The notes: generated from the letters alone by a model not told the origin. Counted from the stretch's first letter, positions 5,499-43,700 are shown. The stretch: 64,000 nucleotides of DNA from Minisyncoccia bacterium (GCA_049997875.1 JBEKRC010000005.1:1679-65678); one strand, 5' to 3'. Numbers and translations: made by a program.

Positions 5499-5533
5499 CA
5501 TTTAATAATTTTTTAATGTCCCGCGAGTATAAT
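5499..5533 (+). promoter_or_regulatory. AT-rich promoter motif TTTAATAATTTTTTAATG plus gagTATAAT; near-leaderless for the 5541 gene
   Basis: Motif at 5499-5518 and TATAAT at 5528-5533. The ATG follows 7 nt later. The motif recurs upstream of accessory genes across the window. Confidence 0.5.
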
Positions 5534-5540
5534 ATTCGTA

Positions 5541-6071
5541 ATGGACATTATAGGGATCTTGAATTATCTCGGCATAACGCACGACAGGGCGCTTCCTTTC
5601 GCCATACTTATAGTGGCGATGATTTATATTAGCTATGCTTTTACCGCGCCGATAAAACGATCTGTCTCAAAAATATCCAACGCGATATTGGAGATACAGA
5701 CGATATTTCACCAGGATGGCGTGGAATTGAAATGTCATCTTGCAGAAGGAACAGGCAGCCCGCTACAGCCCACTCATTATGGGAAACAGCTCATTGTGGA
5801 GAGCGGCTTGGAAACCATCCTGAATGATAAGAAGGATTTTTTGAGGACGGTGCTGGCCAAGAAACTTCCGGAGAACTATACAGAGTACGATGTGCAGGAA
5901 AAGGCCCGCGAGCTTTTGATTGGGTTGAAAAGAGATCAGTTGATGAATCCCGTCAAAACATACGCGTACGAAAATGGAAAAGATATAGATATTATTTTGC
6001 GGGTTGGAGGTCTGTGGCTGAGGGATGATTTTATCGGGCAGGAAAGAAAGATAGTGCCCGAAAAAGGGTAG
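5541..6071 (+). CDS. hypothetical protein (low-GC)
   Basis: 176-aa ORF with an N-terminal hydrophobic segment. No recognisable domain. Confidence 0.45.
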   Translation: MDIIGILNYLGITHDRALPFAILIVAMIYISYAFTAPIKRSVSKISNAILEIQTIFHQDGVELKCHLAEGTGSPLQPTHYGKQLIVESGLETILNDKKDFLRTVLAKKLPENYTEYDVQEKARELLIGLKRDQLMNPVKTYAYENGKDIDIILRVGGLWLRDDFIGQERKIVPEKG

Positions 6072-6076
6072 GGTTG

Positions 6077-6110
6077 TTTTAATAATTTTTTAATGCACGG
6101 TGAGTATAAT
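6077..6110 (+). promoter_or_regulatory. AT-rich promoter motif TTTTAATAATTTTTTAATG plus gagTATAAT upstream of hicB
   Basis: Motif at 6077-6095 and TATAAT at 6105-6110. Confidence 0.5.
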
Positions 6111-6147
6111 ACTTTGCAAAGGTCGCAAAGCAAGTATTGTTATTTTT

Positions 6148-6399
6148 ATGGAGATGCCTACAATGGAATCTGTGAAGACAAAGTATAAATTTCCGTACAT
6201 CATTGAGCCGGACGAAGGCGGGTTTTATGCTACCTGTCCGGCCCTCAAAGGGTGTTCCACGCAGGGCGATACGTACGAAGAGGCACTCGCAAATATCAAA
6301 GAAGCAATCGAGGGCTATTTAGAGTGTCTTAAAAATGACGGAGAAGAAATTCCAACATCATCACATCATGGCTTGCCTACGGTAGAGATCGCCATCTAA
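6148..6399 (+). CDS. hicB: HicB-family antitoxin (UPF0150)
   Basis: YATCPALKGCSTQGDTYEEALANIKEAIEGYLE matches the HicB/UPF0150 signature. Start chosen at an internal Met of ORF 6100. Confidence 0.6.
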   Translation: MEMPTMESVKTKYKFPYIIEPDEGGFYATCPALKGCSTQGDTYEEALANIKEAIEGYLECLKNDGEEIPTSSHHGLPTVEIAI

Positions 6400-6402
6400 T
6401 CT

Positions 6403-6609
6403 ATGCCAAAACTTCCACGCCTCACCGCACGACAAGTAGCGGCTCGGCTAGAAGCGTGCAAGTTTTCGCTTTCACATCAGCGCGGGAGCCATAGATTTTA
6501 TCGTAATGCCGTCGGAAGATTGGTGACGGTCCCATTCCATGGCTCGCGCATCATCTGCCCCAAAACCCTGAAAGACATCATGCGCCAGGCGGGGATTGCG
6601 GAGTGGTGA
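6403..6609 (+). CDS. hicA: HicA-family mRNA interferase toxin
   Basis: 68 aa. LTARQVAARLEACKFSLSHQRGSHRFY...VTVPFHG...KDIMRQAGI is the YcfA/HicA pattern. Lies 4 nt after hicB. Confidence 0.7.
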   Translation: MPKLPRLTARQVAARLEACKFSLSHQRGSHRFYRNAVGRLVTVPFHGSRIICPKTLKDIMRQAGIAEW

Positions 6610-25682: not shown

Positions 25683-25751
25683 TGGAGGCTAGGGGAGTCG
25701 AACCCCTCGGATTCTGAATGTCGAATCAGCTCCGGCGACCGCGCAACCCCC
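25683..25751 (-). other. tRNA-like fragment: canonical T-arm and 3' acceptor strand with G3-U70, but a degenerate D/anticodon half
   Basis: Minus strand reads ...AGGGG-TTCGACT-CCCCT-AGCCTCC-A-CC. A 5' GGGGGTT can pair with the acceptor strand. The D-arm and an 8-nt anticodon loop are non-canonical. Confidence 0.3.
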
Positions 25752-25873
25752 ACCGCGCAAACATTGTAGCGAAGCGACATTAAATAATTCTTAAAAGAAG
25801 TTTGACAAAGTGTTTGAGTCGCTTATACTTTACAATAAGAATGTCGAGTCAGATCCGGTCTGCGTTCGGATTC

Positions 25874-34168: not shown

Positions 34169-34318
34169 AGATTATCTTGAGCGTGGCGAGGGAACTGGCC
34201 CAATGACCCACCGACAACCCCCGGCAATGCGCAATGGCGCGGCGACGAAAAGGTGTCACATCCAGCCCGCAAGGGAAAGATAAAGGTCGCAACGCTTTTC
34301 TTTCGGGAGGGGCGTTTT
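34169..34318 (+). promoter_or_regulatory. SAM-I (S-box) riboswitch with terminator-type expression platform, upstream of metK
   Basis: UUAUCUUGAGCGUGGCGAGGGAACUGGCCCAAUGACCCACCGACAACC...AAAAGGUGUCACAUCCAGC...AAGAUAA matches the S-box core (GAGGGA, UGGCCC, AUGA, GCAACC-like, AAGGUGC..AUCC.GC) and has a complementary P1 strand. A hairpin plus U-run follows at 34290-34318. An extended -10 TGcTATACT lies at 34142-34150. Confidence 0.6.
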
Positions 34319-37225: not shown

Positions 37226-37317
37226 CAGTTCGACACAGTACAAGCCAAAAGTGGAGGCCCAAGCTCAATTAATGCAAGCGAGCGAGGGCCTCTATATTTT
37301 TGTTGTATACTGACCAT

Positions 37318-38001
37318 ATGAAAAAGCTCGCCATTTTTGACATTGACGGGACGATCTTCCGGTCCAGTCTGCTCATTGAACTTGTGGACGCGTTGATTCA
37401 CGAGGGGATTTTCAAGCCAAGCGTGATGCGGATCTACGAGCGGGATAAACGCGCATGGCTTGACCGGAAGGGGGACTACGACGCCTATATTGAAAGCGTC
37501 ATCAGGGCGTTCCTCAAAAATATCAAAGGCGTGCCGTATGCCCGTTTCGCGCGCGTGGCGAAAAAAGTGGTCGCGCTCCACAAGAACCGCGTGTACCGCT
37601 ATACCCGCGATCTCGTTCGCGCTTTAAGGCGCAGGGGATATTGGCTCGTCGCGATCTCGCACTCGCCGCGCGGCGTTGTGGGACCGTTCGCCGCGCAGAT
37701 GGGATTCAATAAAGTGTACGGGCTGCTGTACGAACTCGGCCCCACGAGGCGGTTCAACGGGAAGGTGATGTTTGAGGATCTGATTTTTGACAAGGCGAAG
37801 ATCGTGGCGCGCGTGCTTGCGAAAGAGGGCGTCACGCTCAGCGGTTCCGTGGGCGTGGGGGATACGGAGAGCGACATTCCTTTTTTGAAGCTCGTCACCC
37901 GGGCGATCTGCTTCAATCCGAACGGAAAGCTTTACCGCGCGGCACGCCGCCACGGTTGGGAGATTGTCGTGGAGCGGAAGGACGTGGTGTATCGGATGTA
38001 G
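37318..38001 (+). CDS. HAD-superfamily hydrolase
   Basis: MKKLAIFDIDGTIF is HAD motif I. A downstream GVGDTESD segment is HAD motif IV. Confidence 0.7.
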   Translation: MKKLAIFDIDGTIFRSSLLIELVDALIHEGIFKPSVMRIYERDKRAWLDRKGDYDAYIESVIRAFLKNIKGVPYARFARVAKKVVALHKNRVYRYTRDLVRALRRRGYWLVAISHSPRGVVGPFAAQMGFNKVYGLLYELGPTRRFNGKVMFEDLIFDKAKIVARVLAKEGVTLSGSVGVGDTESDIPFLKLVTRAICFNPNGKLYRAARRHGWEIVVERKDVVYRM

Positions 38002-38009
38002 ATTTGATT

Positions 38010-38286
38010 TGGATTCTTAACGCTGGAAGCAACCAGGAGGACTGGGTTAAGGCCTTACCTGGAACTTAGCGCGGTGTGGTACTGCCCCTTTTTCGATTGT
38101 AAGTCGTGTAGGAGTTGCGCCTCGCACTCTCCCTCCTCCTGCCTCAGGCACTTGCCCGTCGGCTTAGACGGCGGCGTTTCAGCCACCGGCGTCAGGCGTT
38201 CGGAATCACCCTACTTGCCACGGGGGAGATGCTTTATCCCATACCACGAGGATTATTCAGCCACTACTTCCAGCGTTAAGAATCCA
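38010..38286. repeat. 277-bp element bounded by perfect 20-bp inverted repeats (MITE-like or long closing helix of a structured RNA)
   Basis: TGGATTCTTAACGCTGGAAG at 38010-38029 and its exact reverse complement at 38267-38286. The interior is GC-rich and ORF-poor with several hairpins. Confidence 0.4.
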
Positions 38287-38322
38287 ATAAAGATAACGGC
38301 GGCTCATTGCCGATGGTTACTA

Positions 38323-38360
38323 CTTTTTTAATATTTTTTTAATGCTCCGCGTGCAATGCT
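38323..38360 (+). promoter_or_regulatory. AT-rich promoter motif variant CTTTTTTAATATTTTTTTAATG upstream of paralog A
   Basis: Motif 38323-38344. Candidate -10 tgcaatgct at 38352-38360. Confidence 0.4.
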
Positions 38361-38366
38361 TGGCGG

Positions 38367-38792
38367 ATGGTACATCGTTATCGCGTGGATGAGAAAGGAG
38401 CAAAAAAGCTTTATAAGAAGATAGGAAGCGTATCTTGCAGTCTATTCGGCGGGGAGGCAGTATATTTCAATAGCATCGGATTTCGTCATCTTATTCTGAA
38501 GCATGGTGTCCAGAGGTCATCGCGTGAAATAAAAAGGCGCTTTGCCCTATTGCCTTACGTGGCGGAGATCGTCGAGAAATCGGGCAGGCTTATTTCTCGC
38601 AAGGAAAAAATCACGAATCGGCCAATCCATCGCCATGGAAAGCGGACCTATTCGCCTTCAAGAGCGACCTTCTGGACGCTTCGAGCAGGAGTGGACGGCA
38701 GGGACGTGACGGTAATTGTCCGGCAATTTCAAGGCGGCAAAAAACATTTTCTCAGCGTATACGATAAGAAAAACAAAAAACTCCCTTCGTAG
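38367..38792 (+). CDS. hypothetical small protein, paralog A of a two-member family in this window
   Basis: 141 aa. Shares VYFNSIGFRHLI...RRFALLPYV...FW...VIVRQ..GGKKHFLSVY with the 40346 gene (roughly 40% identity by eye). Confidence 0.5.
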   Translation: MVHRYRVDEKGAKKLYKKIGSVSCSLFGGEAVYFNSIGFRHLILKHGVQRSSREIKRRFALLPYVAEIVEKSGRLISRKEKITNRPIHRHGKRTYSPSRATFWTLRAGVDGRDVTVIVRQFQGGKKHFLSVYDKKNKKLPS

Positions 38793-38803
38793 GGGAGCTT
38801 TTT
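38781..38803 (+). terminator. intrinsic terminator overlapping the paralog A stop codon
   Basis: ctccc-ttcgtag-gggag followed by cttttt. Confidence 0.5.
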
Positions 38804-38804
38804 G

Positions 38805-38866
38805 ATATGCCCGCTTCAACGATATAGCCGAATGGGACTGACGCCCCGCGGGCATGGTTTTATTGT
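38805..38866 (+). other. conserved hairpin element, copy 1: outer stem atgcccgc/gcgggcat, core GCCGAATGGGAC-TGAC-GCCCC
   Basis: Family member. Compare 40737-40800 and the inverted copy at 40221-40270. The outer stems differ while the core is conserved. Confidence 0.45.
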
Positions 38867-38890
38867 GGGCGATTTTTCACACAAGTCAAG

Positions 38891-38913
38891 TTTCTTTTAA
38901 TAATTTTTTAATG
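38891..38913 (+). promoter_or_regulatory. AT-rich promoter motif TTTCTTTTAATAATTTTTTAATG upstream of xseA
   Basis: Exact motif copy. Confidence 0.45.
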
Positions 38914-39019
38914 TGTATGTTGTACCATGGATGCGGGCGTGATGCCTTTCACCATCGGCATGCCCCGAACTCCCGCAAGACCGCTCGCAAGAGCGGTTTT
39001 GTGCTGCTACAATAACCAT

Positions 39020-40168
39020 ATGAAGCCGCTGAACGCAGCCGACCATGTCTTCACGATTGGCGAATACATAGAGATCCTGAATACGTTCTTCAAGGCGCAG
39101 GCGGCGAGGATCAGGGGAGAGATCTCGGAGCTGCACCGTGACGCAAAGGGCCACGTCTACTTCGCGATTAAAGATAAAGATGACGGTAGTGTTTTAAGCT
39201 GCATCATCTGGAACCGCAATTACGATCTCTGCGGGGTAGTGCTTGAGGTGGGAATGGAGCTGATCCTCTCGGGGCACCCGAACATTTACGCGCCGAATGG
39301 GCGGCTGTCTTTCATTGCGGATACGGTGGAGCTCGTAGGCGAAGGAGCCTTGAAGAAAGCGTACGAAGCGCTTAAGCGAAAACTGGAAGCGGAGGGCGTG
39401 TTCGCGCCGGAGCGGAAGAGGCCGCTTCCGGAATATCCGACGCAGATCGGAGTTGTGACGTCCATGAAGGGCGCCGTGATCCACGATTTCCTGAATAACC
39501 TTGGGAAGTTCGGGTTCAGGGTGCGCGCGACGGATTCGCGCGTGGAGGGGCAGCAAGCGGTGGTACCTCTTTTGAACGCACTTGCCCTCATGCGGCGCGA
39601 GGCGCAGGCGGGGCGGCTGGACGTGCTCGTTTTGATCCGGGGCGGCGGGTCGCTCGAATCATTGCAGGCATTCAATAACGAAAAGCTTGTGCGCGAGATC
39701 GTGCATTTTCCGGTGCCCGTCGTCGCAGGGATCGGGCACGACAAGGATGTCCCCTTGTCGGCGCTCGCGGCGGATATTATGGTTTCCACGCCGACTGCCA
39801 CGGCGCATCTTTTGAGCAAGCCATGGGAGGAGGCGTACGCGAAAGTGAGGGAGGCGGCGTATCTTTTTTCCCGGGTGGAATCGCGATTTGAACGGATTCG
39901 CGCGGATCTGGACGCTGCGTGGAGTTCGGTGATTGACCACACGGCGCAGGGGATAGCGCATGCAAAGGAGATTTTTGCGAACGCCGAACGGCTGATTGCG
40001 CTCCATGATCCGCGCAGGCAGCTGCGACTCGGCTATGCGATCGTGCGGCACGGCGGCGAAGGAGGCGAGGCCGGTAAGCTCGTGCGGAGCATGCGGGATG
40101 TGGCCGCGGGAGATGTTTTGAACACGGAACTTGCGGACGGGGTGGTGAAGTCAAGGGTGGAGGAGTAG
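39020..40168 (+). CDS. xseA: exodeoxyribonuclease VII large subunit
   Basis: N-terminal OB-fold FTIGEYIEILNTFFKAQAARIRGEISELHRDAKGHVYFAIKD and catalytic core GGGSLESLQAFNNE...VAGIGHDKDVPLSALAAD. Confidence 0.8.
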   Translation: MKPLNAADHVFTIGEYIEILNTFFKAQAARIRGEISELHRDAKGHVYFAIKDKDDGSVLSCIIWNRNYDLCGVVLEVGMELILSGHPNIYAPNGRLSFIADTVELVGEGALKKAYEALKRKLEAEGVFAPERKRPLPEYPTQIGVVTSMKGAVIHDFLNNLGKFGFRVRATDSRVEGQQAVVPLLNALALMRREAQAGRLDVLVLIRGGGSLESLQAFNNEKLVREIVHFPVPVVAGIGHDKDVPLSALAADIMVSTPTATAHLLSKPWEEAYAKVREAAYLFSRVESRFERIRADLDAAWSSVIDHTAQGIAHAKEIFANAERLIALHDPRRQLRLGYAIVRHGGEGGEAGKLVRSMRDVAAGDVLNTELADGVVKSRVEE

Positions 40169-40180
40169 AAGTCAAATTTA

Positions 40181-40214
40181 TTTTAATAATTTTTTAATCT
40201 CTGCGTGCTATAAT
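40181..40214 (+). promoter_or_regulatory. AT-rich promoter motif TTTTAATAATTTTTTAAT plus gcTATAAT driving the small RNA at 40221
   Basis: Motif 40181-40198. TATAAT at 40209-40214. Confidence 0.5.
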
Positions 40215-40220
40215 AATCGT

Positions 40221-40299
40221 GTGCTTGGGGGACTAACGTCCCGTTCGGCCACCAAGCTGAGCCCAAGCACATCAAAGTCACCGCGCACGCGGTGTTTTT
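40221..40299 (+). ncRNA. candidate small RNA carrying an inverted copy of the hairpin family, with its own promoter and intrinsic terminator
   Basis: gtgcttggg-ggactaacgtcc-cgttcggcc-...-cccaagcac. Its reverse complement has GCCGAACGGGAC-GTTA-GTCCC. Ends with accgcg-cac-gcggtg plus a T run at 40280-40299. Confidence 0.4.
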
Positions 40300-40300
40300 G

Positions 40301-40338
40301 ATATTTTTTAAATATTTTTAATGCTCTTTTTTATATGA
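40301..40338 (+). promoter_or_regulatory. AT-rich promoter motif variant plus TTATATGAT -10; leaderless for paralog B
   Basis: atattttttaaatatttttaatg, then ttatatgat 7 nt before the ATG at 40346. Confidence 0.45.
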
Positions 40339-40345
40339 TGCGGCG

Positions 40346-40699
40346 ATGGGCTACCGCGAAACAAAAAAGAAGGCAAGAACGTTCTACTCAAATATGAAAC
40401 CAGCCATACCTCCCAGATTAGAGAAAACAGTTTTCTTCAACAACATAGGGTTTAGGCACCTCATTTGGAAAGGTGGAAAACATCGACCGAAAAGCGAGCA
40501 GACGAGGCGTTTCGCTCTGCTTCCTCACGTAGAAAAGATCATAAGCAATCCTGACGCAACGGTTCTTCGCAAGGTGAAGCACTACAGACCCGTCCGTGCG
40601 GAATTTTGGATCTTTAAAGAAAGGGTGGGGAAGATGATGATCACGGTGGTGATAAGGAGGATTGGGAACGGGAAAAGACATTTTTTCAGCGTTTATTAA
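40346..40699 (+). CDS. hypothetical small protein, paralog B
   Basis: 117 aa, VFFNNIGFRHLIW...RRFALLPHVEKII...FWIF...VVIRRIGNGKRHFFSVY. Inserted between xseA and xseB. Confidence 0.5.
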   Translation: MGYRETKKKARTFYSNMKPAIPPRLEKTVFFNNIGFRHLIWKGGKHRPKSEQTRRFALLPHVEKIISNPDATVLRKVKHYRPVRAEFWIFKERVGKMMITVVIRRIGNGKRHFFSVY

Positions 40700-40712
40700 G
40701 GGCATCAAAAAT

Positions 40713-40736
40713 CCGCTCAGGATTGAGCGGTTCTTT
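40713..40736 (+). terminator. intrinsic terminator after paralog B
   Basis: ccgctc-aggatt-gagcgg followed by ttcttt. Confidence 0.45.
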
Positions 40737-40800
40737 GATATGCCCGTTACCAGCCATGTAACGCCGATTAGGGACTTCCGTCCCACGGGCATACTCCCAT
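40737..40800 (+). other. conserved hairpin element, copy 3: outer stem atgcccg/cgggcat, core GCCGATTAGGGAC-TTCC-GTCCC
   Basis: Same architecture as copy 1. Confidence 0.45.
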
Positions 40801-40833
40801 TTTAGGGCAATCTATTCTTGAAAGTCAACTTTC

Positions 40834-40874
40834 TTTTAATGATTTTTTAATCTTTCGGCGATAAGGAGTATAAT
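40834..40874 (+). promoter_or_regulatory. AT-rich promoter motif TTTTAATGATTTTTTAATC plus gagTATAAT; leaderless for xseB
   Basis: TATAAT at 40869-40874. ATG at 40882. Confidence 0.5.
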
Positions 40875-40881
40875 AAACCCA

Positions 40882-41088
40882 ATGGCTGCGAAACCCGCGA
40901 AAGACGATTTCAAACATCATTTGGAGGAGATCGGAAAGATCCTTTCCTGGTTTGATGCGCAGGAGGAGCTGGATGTGGAAGCCGCGCTTCTGAAGATAAA
41001 AAAGGCGGCGGAGCTTATTAAGGCGAGCCGGAAGAGGCTTAAGGAGATTGAGAATGAATTTGAGGAGATAAAGGGGGAGACGGAGTAG
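40882..41088 (+). CDS. xseB: exodeoxyribonuclease VII small subunit
   Basis: 68-aa coiled-coil protein FKHHLEEIGKILSWFDAQEELDVEAALLKIKKAAELIKASRKRLKEIENEFEEI. Confidence 0.7.
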   Translation: MAAKPAKDDFKHHLEEIGKILSWFDAQEELDVEAALLKIKKAAELIKASRKRLKEIENEFEEIKGETE

Positions 41089-41094
41089 GGCGCA

Positions 41095-41382
41095 TTAACG
41101 GTCAACAAGCGCGATCTGCTTATTGAACACGTGCGCGATCCTGTACAGGGTTGCGAGAGATACGGGGTGTTTTCCAGATTCTATCCGCGCAACGACTGAT
41201 TGTGGCATAGATGCTTTCGCCGCCACTTGTTTCTGCGTCATGTTTTTCTTTTGCCGAAGCACCTTTATCTGATAGGCAAGGCGGAGGCGATTCACTTCTT
41301 CGGTGAACCCCTTTCTGAAGGCGGGGTTTTTAAGTTCTTCTTTTAGAACTTTCTCAAAGGGAATAAATTTCAGTTTTTCCAT
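41095..41382 (-). CDS. HTH XRE-family antitoxin (HigA-like)
   Basis: KNMTQKQVAAKASMPQSVVARIESGKHPVSLATLYRIAHVF is a helix-turn-helix. Overlaps the upstream toxin gene by 13 nt. Confidence 0.65.
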   Translation of the reverse strand: MEKLKFIPFEKVLKEELKNPAFRKGFTEEVNRLRLAYQIKVLRQKKNMTQKQVAAKASMPQSVVARIESGKHPVSLATLYRIAHVFNKQIALVDR

Positions 41383-41714
41383 GGCAGCTGTTTGAATGTT
41401 TTATATATTGCTTCCGCTTTTCTTATGATGCGGAGCGGTGTCTTTTGGGATTGTTTTTTGAACAAGGAGACAAAATAGATTGCCTCGCCGCTTTTGAAGA
41501 AAATCAGGCGATAGCGATGAACGATGAGTTCCTGAATGCCGCCACGGAGGGTTTTTATCGTAAGCGCCCCCACTTCTCCTTCTCGCAATAGTGTGAGATG
41601 CGCATAGATTTTGTCCTTCTCGTGCACGGGGAGGTCGGATAGTGCCCTGTAGAAATCATGAAGGAAATGAAGGGTGGTCATCAAGCGCCCTTCTCCCGGA
41701 TAGGAGTATAGCAA
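41370..41714 (-). CDS. RelE/ParE-superfamily toxin (HigB / phage Gp49-like); alternative start at Met12
   Basis: GIQELIVHRYRLIFFKSGEAIYFVSLFKKQSQKTP is the Gp49/HigB-like pattern. Toxin-first gene order with the XRE antitoxin. Confidence 0.6.
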   Translation of the reverse strand: MLYSYPGEGRLMTTLHFLHDFYRALSDLPVHEKDKIYAHLTLLREGEVGALTIKTLRGGIQELIVHRYRLIFFKSGEAIYFVSLFKKQSQKTPLRIIRKAEAIYKTFKQLPWKN

Positions 41715-41819
41715 AATTGCTATACCATTGTCAACGGTCCATTCAGAGAGGCCGGGCGTGGCTGCATGGTATCAAATAAGGGATTAAAACAATCTAAAGG
41801 CGCCTGCTATCAATGCGGC

Positions 41820-42401
41820 TTAAACCGCCTTCACCGTGAGCTCGTTGCGATAGGGCTCAAGGAGCTCAAGCCGGCCATCGGGCGCGATCCATTCCTTTTC
41901 CCTGCCCGGCGGAAGGATGGCGGGCATCCGGTCGTGGATGGGGGACATGGTCTTGTTCGCGGGCACGGTGATGATGGAGAAGAACGGCCGCATGGCGTCG
42001 GAAAGCGTTTTGGTCCTCCATTCGTAGATCCCTGCGAAGGCCATCGGGCGGTGTTCCAGCGTGAAGCGGTACTTCTCTCTCGCGCCGCCGGTCCTCTTCC
42101 ACTCGTAGAAGCCGTCCGCAAGGACAATGCAGCGATGGTTCTCCACGGCCTTGCGGAAGTAGGGCTTGCCGAGGATGCTTTCGGCCCTGATATTGATGAG
42201 CTCCTTCTTTCTGCCCTTGACCTCGGTGGGATAGCCCCAATGGCCGAGGATTATTTGGTTCGGCTCGCTCGCGAGCACGACGGGCAGGTTTTCGCTCGGG
42301 CGGGCGTCGTCCGTCACGAGATACGCCTCGTGGGGAGGGAGGACGCCGAAGTATTCGGCCAGATTCTTCACGGGGGTGGTGATGGCGTAGCGGCCGCACA
42401 T
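41820..42401 (-). CDS. yedK: SOS-response-associated peptidase (SRAP/YedK, abasic-site crosslinking protein)
   Basis: Starts MCGRYA, with the invariant Cys2. DUF159 pattern throughout. Confidence 0.8.
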   Translation of the reverse strand: MCGRYAITTPVKNLAEYFGVLPPHEAYLVTDDARPSENLPVVLASEPNQIILGHWGYPTEVKGRKKELINIRAESILGKPYFRKAVENHRCIVLADGFYEWKRTGGAREKYRFTLEHRPMAFAGIYEWRTKTLSDAMRPFFSIITVPANKTMSPIHDRMPAILPPGREKEWIAPDGRLELLEPYRNELTVKAV

Positions 42402-42676
42402 GAGGTAACTATAGCGCTCGCCATCAATTTCGCCATTTTCCTGCGCTCCTCTCTGACGTCCATGCACCAGGCGTGGCCTCTCACGGTGATCACAAGTTCA
42501 AGGAATTCGGGGAGGTTTTTCTTGAGAGTTTTGTGGGGAGATTTTTGGTAGAGGGCGAGCTTTTTCTTGGCGCGGTAGTATTCGTCGGGAGACATAGGGT
42601 GATCTTTGATCGGGAGGGGAGGGTGAGTCAAGGGGGTAAGGCCCCAATTGAACATTAAGGAGGAAAGAGGTAGGGT

Positions 42677-42706
42677 TTTAATAAAGATTTAATGATTTTT
42701 TAATCT
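42677..42706 (+). promoter_or_regulatory. AT-rich promoter motif variant TTTTAATAAAGATTTAATGATTTTTTAATC upstream of the NucS-like gene
   Basis: Shares the TTTAATAAAGATTTAATGA variant with the copy at 48041. Confidence 0.4.
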
Positions 42707-42710
42707 TTCC

Positions 42711-43700
42711 ATGGAAAAGGTGGGGCAGCCTATGAACCATTCTTTGTTTGTGCTTACCGCCAGTAATCCTGAAGCGTATCAGCACTATATCGATACGATT
42801 GAGCGTGGCTTTCCTATTAACGATATTAAGGAGTTTCTGAGTGAAGATCAGTATATTGCCCTAAGGAATCTTTGCGGGGAAGAGCATCTTAAGGCTTGGG
42901 GTGCTACCCCGGGGAAGGGTAATATTGCCACTTGGAACAAGATGAATATCGGCGACCCGATCCTTATTTATAGACAAGGTAATTTTGAATATTACGCTTT
43001 TATTGCATTCAAGTTGCATAATGTTGAAATAGCAAAAAAGTTATGGCGGACGAACATAAAGGGAGAAACATGGGAATATGTCTACTTTTTAGATAAGCTG
43101 ACAGAAATTTCGGTTCCGGTGAAAATATTTAACGAAAGCATTGGTTATAAAGACAACTTTACGCCACAGGGTTTTAGTTCTGTTGATAAGAAGAAAGTGG
43201 ATTATTTGAAGGAGAAATTTGGATCGATTGAATCATTTCTTAATTATCTGGCAGAAGGGAAATGGATAGAGAGGGAAACCGCATATCCAAGGGAGGTTAA
43301 GGAGACCATTATTCAAGAAAGAGTTTCTCGACAGCTTGGACGCACCTCTTTACTTGAAGCGAACCTCGAAAATTATTTAGCGGATCGTGTTGCCCAGATT
43401 GAACCCGGTTTGAAATTAATTGGTCGACAGTTGGATACAAAAGAAGTCGGGCGGTTGGATCTGCTTTGTGAAGATAAGGATAAAAATTTGGTGGTCGTTG
43501 AATTGAAGCGGGGAACCGCAGGTTCATCAATTATTGATCAGATTCAGCGATACATGGGTTGGATGATCGCTCATAAGGCTCAGCCGAATCAAAAGGTGAG
43601 AGGCATTGTTATTGTGGCGTCCAAAGATACTGCGCTTGAATATGCGGTCAAAGCTAACCCGATGGTGCAGATAAAGACGTTTAATATCAGCGTGCAATAA
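42711..43700 (+). CDS. NucS/EndoMS-like PD-(D/E)xK nuclease (DUF91) with a non-NucS N-terminal domain, possibly PUA/EVE-like; candidate modification-dependent or defense nuclease
   Basis: C-terminus IEPGLKLIGRQLDTKEVGRLDLLCEDKDKNLVVVELKRGTAGSSIIDQIQRYMGWM...KVRGIVIVAS matches the NucS C-terminal nuclease (IEPGFK...GIVDVLGRDSDGNIVVLELKRRRA...KVRGILVAPS). The N-terminal 190 aa (W..N.GDPILIYRQGN..YYAFIAF) differs from the NucS N-domain. GC is about 38%. Confidence 0.6.
   Translation: MEKVGQPMNHSLFVLTASNPEAYQHYIDTIERGFPINDIKEFLSEDQYIALRNLCGEEHLKAWGATPGKGNIATWNKMNIGDPILIYRQGNFEYYAFIAFKLHNVEIAKKLWRTNIKGETWEYVYFLDKLTEISVPVKIFNESIGYKDNFTPQGFSSVDKKKVDYLKEKFGSIESFLNYLAEGKWIERETAYPREVKETIIQERVSRQLGRTSLLEANLENYLADRVAQIEPGLKLIGRQLDTKEVGRLDLLCEDKDKNLVVVELKRGTAGSSIIDQIQRYMGWMIAHKAQPNQKVRGIVIVASKDTALEYAVKANPMVQIKTFNISVQ

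Follow-up and report, generated by a model that had tools for sequence, protein, structure and literature searches.

In the type I toxin–antitoxin locus par of pAD1 (Fst; RNA I and RNA II), a toxin mRNA and a regulatory RNA are transcribed from convergent promoters into a shared bidirectional terminator, which makes the two transcripts complementary (PMC7472228). In type III toxin–antitoxin systems, by comparison, a Rho-independent terminator sets the ratio of RNA to protein (PMC5086642). A third point of reference is the LPD3 domain, found in polyvalent proteins of phages and conjugative elements, which is without an assigned function but has been noted in prophage proteins of Helicobacter that also contain PBECR RNase and RelA/SpoT domains; some LPD domains also occur on their own near type IV secretion genes (Iyer et al., PMC5512222). 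Here, we describe a locus that invites comparison with all three, located in a 64-kb stretch of DNA (hereafter the window) from the metagenome-assembled genome of a Minisyncoccia bacterium (GCA_049997875.1, JBEKRC010000005.1:1679-65678), a member of the Patescibacteria or candidate phyla radiation (CPR). It comprises two paralogous genes for small LPD3-like proteins, one upstream of xseA and the other between xseA and xseB, each faced by a convergent gene for a Y-shaped RNA (H1 and H2, respectively), as well as a third Y RNA gene (H3) that lacks a cognate protein gene (Table 1). Patescibacteria have tiny genomes full of unannotated genes, and, to our knowledge, few structured RNAs have been described for them. 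We tentatively favor the view that each unit is a mobile protein–RNA pair with toxin–antitoxin-like logic that was inserted before xseA or between xseA and xseB.

The module has in common with par the convergent arrangement of its units, the shared bidirectional terminator and the antisense overlap of the transcripts, which are here predicted from sequence. Like par, which occurs on both chromosomes and plasmids, it is a small, self-contained locus with a scattered distribution. However, Fst is a hydrophobic membrane peptide of ~33 amino acids, whereas the proteins encoded here are soluble, basic α/β proteins of 117–141 amino acids. Moreover, RNA II also pairs with 5' direct repeats of its target mRNA, whereas no cognate 5' complementarity was found for the Y RNA, whose conserved three-way junction would be unnecessary for simple antisense pairing. 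With the type III systems ToxIN, CptIN and TenpIN, the module would share the pairing of an RNA-acting protein effector with a structured non-coding RNA that neutralizes it by binding, as proposed here. The order of H3, its terminator and paralog 2 superficially resembles the antitoxin–terminator–toxin arrangement, but H3 is the only Y RNA that lies upstream of a family gene and points in the same direction. Antitoxins of type III consist of arrays of tandem repeats that are situated upstream of the toxin gene in the same operon and processed by a ToxN-type endoribonuclease, whereas the Y RNA is single-copy, usually located downstream of and convergent to the protein gene, and equipped with its own promoter. 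The protein itself is unrelated to ToxN, CptN and TenpN, with no ToxN-type relation detected in a Pfam scan. It resembles the LPD3 domains of polyvalent proteins in sequence and fold, and one homolog (L004) likewise lies near type IV secretion genes, but the proteins described here are stand-alone and chromosomally encoded, occur largely in CPR bacteria and have a small RNA as their partner. RelE, YoeB and other BECR toxins are not related to the protein at the profile level, and the family gene has no protein antitoxin gene beside it. Since the module thus encodes neither a peptide toxin, as in type I, nor tandem upstream repeats, as in type III, nor a RelE homolog with a protein antitoxin, we describe it as potentially working like these systems rather than as a member of any of them.

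The Y RNA has a core of ~52 nt, composed of an 8-bp outer stem, a 5-bp hairpin that usually carries a GNRA or GNNA tetraloop and a 6-bp hairpin in which G-U pairs are conserved. An A-rich linker connects each core to an intrinsic terminator. H1 and H2 are located on the minus strand and H3 on the plus strand, between xseA and paralog 2; searches with a covariance model yielded no convincing fourth copy in the window. The folding z-scores were -3.3 for H1 on the minus strand, as opposed to +0.09 on the plus strand, -6.4 for H2 on the minus strand and -5.9 for H3. Among 17 aligned sequences, standard pairs made up 95.6% of the cells, and 9 of the 19 pairs had changed on both sides. The H1 and H2 elements covary in the outer stem (C-G versus U-A). 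The observed pairing values were reached by none of 500 shuffles, and sliding the partners by 1–3 columns reduced pairing to 26–46%. The loop of the first hairpin reads GNNA in 13 of 18 copies (GNRA in 8), a regularity that is meaningful only in the proposed RNA sense. An earlier reading of the same DNA, made from the sequence alone (the original prediction), had described covarying hairpin elements behind each of the two small genes. Structure and covariation were borne out, but the elements are three-way junctions instead of simple hairpins, occur in three instead of two copies, and two of them lie on the opposite strand. No relevant match to a Rfam 15 family was obtained, either across the window at the gathering thresholds or, with a permissive cut-off of E ≤ 10, in the region 37900–41000.

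Other identities of the Y RNA were considered and rejected. A tRNA mimic is not supported, because no anticodon-like sequence recurs consistently in the loops of the second hairpin and a CCA end is missing, and a self-cleaving ribozyme is at odds with a junction that has almost no unpaired conserved core. Translation of the RNA as a leaderless open reading frame (ORF) starting at its AUG was discarded because the length of this frame is not conserved (13, 24, 65 and 124 codons). The two longest frames, 40418–40792 (minus strand, 124 amino acids) and 38658–38855 (minus strand, 65 amino acids), start at the Y RNA AUG and read through the terminator into the antisense strand of the protein gene, while those of 13 and 24 codons are found in other loci. 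The long antisense frames are probably artifacts that gene callers might annotate.

The two minus-strand Y RNA genes are preceded by sigma-70-type promoter sequences (TTGACT-16-CACAAT for H1 and TTGACT-18-TAAAAT for H2), which both end 6 nt before the A of the sequence AUGCCCG and were both called by an independent promoter/terminator scan. The same geometry, with TTGACn, a spacer of 16–18 nt, TAnnnT and then 5–8 nt (mostly 6) to the first base, was found in 14 of 15 tabulated copies from different genomes, and the AT-rich tract of these promoters occupies the position of an UP-like element. The protein genes and the minus-strand Y RNA genes converge on a shared bidirectional terminator hairpin, so that the predicted Y RNA transcript, comprising the Y core and the intrinsic terminator, is ~90 nt long and the 3' ends of the two transcripts should overlap by ~30–35 nt. 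From these features, we strongly infer that the Y RNA gene, on the strand opposite to the protein gene, is transcribed from a promoter of its own as far as the shared terminator. The terminators proposed to overlap or follow the stop codons of the small genes are indeed present (Table 1), and the suggestion that the hairpin elements are more than terminators holds in that they appear as separate small RNA genes with their own promoter and terminator.

The AT-rich motif that had drawn attention to the locus is genuinely repeated: TTTTAATNATTTTTTAAT has eight matches with at most two mismatches in the 64 kb, compared to 0.03 expected, four of which fall in 38326–40851, with an additional degenerate copy starting at 40304. 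Upstream of the protein genes, it forms part of a recurrent layout, TTTTAATG-N10-12-(-10)-N6-ATG, that is found again before the homologs in L001–L004; the leader of paralog 2, in particular, retains its order of motif, -10 box and ATG in L003, L004 and L002. A 32-nt repeat (AAGTCAAnTTTnTTTTAATnATTTTTTAAT; 91% identity) starts at positions 38883, 40169 and 40822 and contains the heptamer AAGTCAA, the reverse complement of the -35 box. The 'second promoter motif' before xseA and xseB, which was originally thought to drive these genes, is therefore largely the Y RNA promoter read backwards, with its TTGACT box in reverse. Similarly, the copy behind xseA, taken for the promoter of paralog 2, starts H3, and paralog 2 has a motif and a TATGAT box of its own. 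In L004, the AT-rich motif beside the Y RNA faces the 3' end of a convergent gene; its conservation even in this setting indicates that its constant role at this position is that of a Y RNA promoter. Outward transcription of xseA and xseB from the motif is possible in addition, and a TATAAT sequence is present at 40866–40871, 10 nt before the xseB start codon. In practical terms, such AT-rich 'promoter motifs' should not be read solely as promoters of the downstream housekeeping gene.

Elsewhere in the window, the motif precedes several unrelated genes (at 5500, 6077, 25779 and 42687), namely a 176-amino-acid ORF, a HicB/HicA-like pair, a tRNA-like RNA and a NucS-like gene, and thus represents a general promoter element of this genome, seen mostly before accessory genes. 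It seems to mark both accessory genes and small RNA genes. The copies at 5500 and 6077, each followed by TATAAT, precede the membrane-like 176-amino-acid ORF (5541–6071) and the HicB/HicA-like pair (about 6149–6399 and 6403–6609), which is located just upstream of an alaS-like ORF; the identities in 5500–6609 were judged by eye from the translations. The copy at 25779–25796 (minus strand) belongs to a promoter with a TACAAT box, a few bases after which the tRNA-like small RNA starts (~25683–25752, minus strand). The latter has a T-arm and an acceptor-like 3' end (...GGTTCGACTCCCCTAGCCTCCACC) and gave sub-threshold matches to tRNA-Sec (20.8 bits) and mascRNA (20.3 bits), but was not called by ARAGORN.

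The two small proteins are paralogs, as originally proposed, sharing 38% identity over 129 aligned positions (E = 1e-25). An exhaustive profile search placed them in a large family of 1114 cluster representatives (50% identity) at E ≤ 1e-3, or 576 at E ≤ 1e-10, nearly all of which are stand-alone proteins of 115–150 amino acids. Wherever the source names an organism, it belongs to the Patescibacteria, and every source name is 'hypothetical protein'. An alignment of 92 sequences revealed invariant residues at positions Y14, F31, G35, H38, R47, R104, H112, F113 and S115; the proteins of the window are basic, with conserved arginine and histidine residues. Paralog 2 matches the LPD3 model (PF18798) over its full length, albeit with a score (20.6 bits, E = 5.5e-4) below the gathering cut-off of 27 bits, and paralog 1 gave no match to it in the Pfam scan. 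Across the family, the model matches 39 of 77 members at E ≤ 0.01 (best 3e-7), a few of them above the cut-off, and five relatives carry a precomputed PF18798 match. The AlphaFold2 model of paralog 2 (pLDDT 94.6) shows three helices followed by a four-stranded sheet. When it was compared to models of viral proteins with Foldseek, ranks 1 and 3 were annotated LPD3 domains of phage polyvalent proteins (TM-scores 0.58 and 0.60, probabilities 1.00 and 0.98), whereas the Protein Data Bank (PDB) contained no significant structural match and yielded nothing meaningful in sequence searches with two profiles. Judged by these profiles and the structural model, the protein is LPD3-like in sequence and fold and represents a stand-alone relative of the LPD3 domain. 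No relatives were found among GenBank phages and in IMG/VR, so that there is no evidence of a phage-borne module.

A likeness of the C-terminal tails to the RelE/YoeB superfamily, another element of the original prediction, did not extend to the profile level: hhalign returned probabilities of 0.3% for both RelE and YoeB, with manually entered query sequences, and of 1.8% for the Gp49/HigB-like protein encoded in the window. Matches to PBECR3 remained below the cut-off (E = 0.0015–0.044), and the structural scores against BECR-fold RNase toxins were within the range of noise. The resemblance to BECR/RelE RNases is only faint.

The partnership between protein and RNA became apparent from a comparison of 13 distinct family genes, comprising the two in the window and those of L001–5, L007, L009 and L035–38. 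All of them have a convergent Y-shaped RNA downstream. It scored 52–78 bits with the covariance model in 10 cases and more weakly in L009 (20 bits) and L037 (14.5 bits, partial); in L038, it was identified by its fold only, without a model match. A terminator is evident between the gene and the RNA in all loci except L035. We detected no conserved second ORF beside the family gene in any of the 13 contexts; the conserved partner is the RNA. Some of these RNAs depart from the common form: L009 and L037 have a longer, bulged first hairpin, L038 (3384–3590) carries a Y variant along with additional hairpins, and L007 (4385–4475) contains an extra structured element of ~90 nt between the Y RNA and the terminator. 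Going by these sequences, the RNA partner is diversifying.

The protein and RNA genes also travel together. A protein with 71% identity and its downstream element lie between genes for a Band_7 protein and a UvrD-like helicase in L002, a 78%-identical protein follows metK in L003, and a 63%-identical protein adjoins TraC-like/PrgI type IV secretion genes in L004. The genes of more distant homologs are situated between secY and adk in two genomes (L007 and L036), beside rplT, adjacent to genes for a serine recombinase and an rve integrase (L035), and at other sites. In L007 (4001–4652) and L036 (3001–3542), the module resides within a ribosomal-protein/secY–adk gene string, with the protein gene antisense to the operon and the Y RNA co-directional with secY. 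The search for copies in other genomes, advised in the original prediction, thus located the pair in unrelated contexts, and the relative lacking the insert, whose xseA–xseB junction was to be compared, proved to be L002. There, xseA (60% identical) and xseB (74% identical) are only 28 nt apart. The window therefore holds an insertion of ~710 bp at this junction, bracketed by the 32-nt repeats at 40169 and 40822. The heptamer AAGTCAA is also found in the final codons of xseA, in the window (40146–40177) as well as in the insert-free L002 (~2338–2346), which might reflect a micro-homology used for insertion or may be a coincidence.

Loci were also collected by way of the RNA. When metagenomes were scanned with a pattern derived solely from the RNA, 24 loci were returned, 17 of which were GC-rich chance matches without the fold. 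Because L019 and L024 are identical, the seven real loci correspond to six distinct ones with seven distinct Y RNAs; a scan of a genome collection with a narrow alignment returned a single locus. An intact convergent family gene is present in three of the distinct loci (L019/L024, L022 and L030), a partly decayed one in L027 and only a C-terminal remnant of 24 amino acids (E = 1.5e-7) in L014, which is located between murA and mreB, while L033 has a Y RNA without any family gene. In L022, two Y RNAs flank one gene, so that the second is without a gene of its own, as is a degenerate second copy in L002 and, likewise, H3 in the window. Across the 13 distinct family genes on the protein side and the six distinct loci on the RNA side, we thus observed Y RNAs without an intact protein gene, but never a protein gene without a Y RNA, an asymmetry that is expected of an antitoxin.

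With these findings, each of the proposed cassettes is a compact two-gene accessory module, made up of a gene for a small basic protein and a Y RNA gene on the opposite strand. The protein gene would be expressed from its AT-rich promoter, probably as a leaderless mRNA, and the RNA from its sigma-70-type promoter, using the terminator hairpin of the protein gene, read backwards, as its own. By analogy with known systems, the protein may be an RNA-targeting effector that is held in check by the abundant, structured Y RNA, mainly through binding of the RNA to the protein, in a type III-like manner, and perhaps also through antisense overlap at the 3' end, as in the type I par locus. The gene pair, the structure of the RNA, the linkage of both partners and their mobility are shown, whereas toxicity and neutralization are only inferred. 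A toxin–antitoxin reading is suggested by the convergent, terminator-sharing layout known from par (PMC7472228), the asymmetric decay of the two partners, their multi-copy and patchy distribution in unrelated contexts, neighborhoods rich in other toxin–antitoxin and nuclease genes and the faint BECR-like features. Direct RNA–protein binding, as in type III systems (PMC5086642), appears likelier than pure antisense control, because the Y core lacks cognate-specific complementarity.

Several observations weigh against this reading. No defense, phage or NCBIfam model fits the protein, as searches of PADLOC, PHROGs and NCBIfam gave no match, and the BECR/RNase signal is weak and embedded in β-sheet noise, with no profile match to RelE, YoeB or HigB. 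Between the Y core and the 5' region of the mRNA, there is no complementarity specific to cognate pairs, with RNAduplex energies of -24.5 kcal/mol compared to -23.2 ± 4.4 kcal/mol for non-cognate pairs, which would leave the terminator overlap as the sole basis of antisense control. Recent movement was not observed, as several modules have stable positions next to housekeeping genes and the 18 contigs of the population are all 100% identical. In addition, the sample of loci is small, and the pattern used to select those on the RNA side prescribes part of the sequence. A 26-nt similarity between 40399–40424 and 40749–40774 had been considered as a site of pairing between the Y core and its cognate mRNA, but it was rejected because it is not kept in L003 and the cognate energies equal the non-cognate ones.

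Among the alternatives, the one that survives best is a non-toxic ribonucleoprotein, in which the Y RNA acts as a scaffold, cofactor or substrate of the LPD3-like protein and the pair serves as a defense sensor or RNA-processing factor, with no addiction logic. The linkage, the covariation and the conserved G-U pairs are equally expected of a protein-binding RNA, the basic protein has conserved arginine and histidine residues, and LPD3 is without an assigned function (PMC5512222). We nevertheless consider this scenario unlikely: Y RNAs remain at sites with a decayed protein gene or none at all, whereas an obligate ribonucleoprotein would tend to lose both components, and antisense-regulated toxins typically show such a convergent layout with a common terminator.

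It is more improbable that the Y RNA is an independent small RNA gene, next to which the protein gene merely inserts or which it uses as an attachment site. This idea would account for the Y RNAs without a gene (H3, L033 and the second copy in L022) and for the complete promoter and terminator of each RNA, but in close relatives the RNA and the protein gene relocate together into different contexts, the RNA is multi-copy and diverges in step with the neighboring gene, and the RNA of L014 adjoins a pseudogene remnant. Slightly less credible still is a selfish nuclease gene that, like a homing endonuclease, cuts DNA at intergenic targets and copies itself, with the RNA as its regulator. The fold is unlike any known class of homing endonuclease, its nearest neighbors being RNA-directed toxins and LPD3, and we identified neither a target-site duplication nor conserved ends beyond the promoter motifs, although the insertions lie precisely between conserved neighbors (xseA|xseB, secY|adk in two genomes and, as a remnant, murA|mreB) and conserved histidine and arginine residues are present.

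The remaining two alternatives fit the promoter, terminator and covariation evidence poorly, and both are very improbable. Mobile cassettes of the integron type, in which each ORF is followed by a structured single-stranded DNA recombination site, would explain the repeated units of ORF and structured element and the direct repeats that bracket one of them, and the notion of mobility contained in the original prediction stands, since the insertions travel as a block (L002 carries the unit elsewhere and has an insert-free xseA–xseB junction); however, unlike integron cassettes with their attC sites, each ORF comes with a promoter motif, the element possesses GNRA-type loops in the RNA sense as well as a promoter and a terminator at defined positions, occurs in either orientation and mostly on the strand opposite to the ORF, there is no integrase nearby in the window or linked in 12 of the 13 contexts and no recombinase consistently tied to the unit, and the units are dispersed singly in other genomes instead of being arrayed at one platform. 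Mere operon punctuation, with hairpins acting only as terminators or insulators, motifs only as promoters and the structured element devoid of function, agrees with the true presence of terminators and promoters and with the AT-rich motif before unrelated genes, but does not explain why a separate three-way junction beyond the terminator should be maintained through compensatory changes in distant genomes and accompany a single protein family.

The module is more interesting than ordinary operon structure, its anatomy differs from that proposed before, and the function we assign to it is hypothetical. What this work defines is a conserved small RNA family outside Rfam 15, together with its promoter and terminator and its obligatory-looking partnership with a protein family of more than 1000 clusters. 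Both the Y RNA family and its partnership with LPD3-like proteins appear to be undescribed in the resources searched. If the module is a toxin–antitoxin system or an RNA-gated effector, its architecture would fall between type I and type III, suggest RNA as the target of the LPD3 domains that phages and plasmids inject and provide a marker for mobile DNA in genomes in which mobile elements are hard to recognize. It is tempting to speculate further that the Y RNA and the LPD3-like protein constitute a previously unrecognized, CPR-wide class of RNA–protein toxin–antitoxin systems (or RNA-gated effectors), in which a single-copy Y RNA made from its own convergent promoter binds and silences a BECR-like RNase. 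Although rather doubtful, this proposal, if true, would establish the first function of an LPD3 domain and the first described RNA-antitoxin system typical of the ultra-small Patescibacteria.

Table 1. Features of the protein–Y RNA modules and the flanking exonuclease VII genes (positions refer to the window)
Feature	Coordinates	Strand	Evidence and remarks
AT-rich promoter motif of paralog 1	38323–38349	+	Motif match; -10-like TGCAAT at 38352–38357, ATG 9 nt further; promoter role predicted
Paralog 1, small basic LPD3-like protein (141 amino acids)	38367–38792	+	Family hidden Markov model, E = 7.4e-40
Bidirectional intrinsic terminator common to paralog 1 and Y RNA H1	38774–38804	both strands called	Stop codon of paralog 1 inside hairpin
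Y RNA H1, three-way junction core	38807–38855	-	Predicted transcript 38855 to ~38768; covariance model 64.8 bits, E = 8e-18
H1 promoter	38862–38912	-	-10 CACAAT at 38867–38862, -35 TTGACT at 38889–38884, AT-rich upstream tract 38895–38912
xseA, exonuclease VII large subunit	39020–40168	+	Pfam Exonuc_VII_L, E = 2.6e-56; flanking host gene, outside module
H3 promoter, 32-nt motif copy and extended -10 TGcTATAAT (40206–40214)	40169–40214	+	TATAAT ends 6 nt before first H3 model position
Y RNA H3, without cognate protein gene	40221–40272	+	Outer stem extendable to 40219; 56.3 bits, E = 4.5e-15
H3 terminator	40279–40300	called on minus strand too	Terminator-like hairpin at 40279–40294
AT-rich motif of paralog 2 and -10 TATGAT (40334–40339)	40304–40339	+	ATG 6 nt later; leaderless mRNA predicted
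Paralog 2, LPD3-like protein (117 amino acids)	40346–40699	+	AlphaFold2 model, pLDDT 94.6
Bidirectional terminator common to paralog 2 and Y RNA H2	40713–40730	both strands called	Terminator scan
Y RNA H2, three-way junction core	40740–40792	-	Predicted transcript 40792 to ~40704; 74.4 bits, E = 6.5e-21
H2 promoter	40799–40851	-	-10 TAAAAT at 40804–40799, -35 TTGACT at 40828–40823, spacer 18, AT-rich tract 40834–40851; 10/12 consensus matches
xseB, exonuclease VII small subunit	40882–41088	+	74% identical to gene directly after xseA in L002; weak Pfam match, E = 0.006; flanking host gene

In the wider gene order, a HAD hydrolase gene (37300–38001) and an inverted repeat precede paralog 1, xseA, paralog 2 and xseB, which are followed by a HigB/HigA-like pair and the genes for a SRAP protein and a NucS-like nuclease. 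The inverted repeat, with perfect 21-bp arms at 38009–38029 and 38267–38287, encloses a GC-rich stretch of 237 nt between the HAD gene and the promoter of paralog 1. The element folds unusually well on both strands (z-scores of -4.6 and -4.9) and has no Rfam match, no plausible ORF and no second copy of its arms in the window; it could be a structured RNA or a miniature inverted-repeat element. Further upstream, an S-adenosylmethionine riboswitch (34169–34286, plus strand; 51.7 bits, above the gathering score), unrelated to the module, lies before the region of a 412-amino-acid ORF. Directly after xseB, the region 41095–43700 looks like an accessory island. It contains, on the minus strand, the HigB (Gp49)/HigA-like toxin–antitoxin pair, then the SRAP gene (41820–42467, minus strand) and the NucS_C/PD-(D/E)XK nuclease-like gene (42711–43700), which has its own AT-motif promoter. 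At 43–46 kb, the GC content falls to 0.39–0.45.

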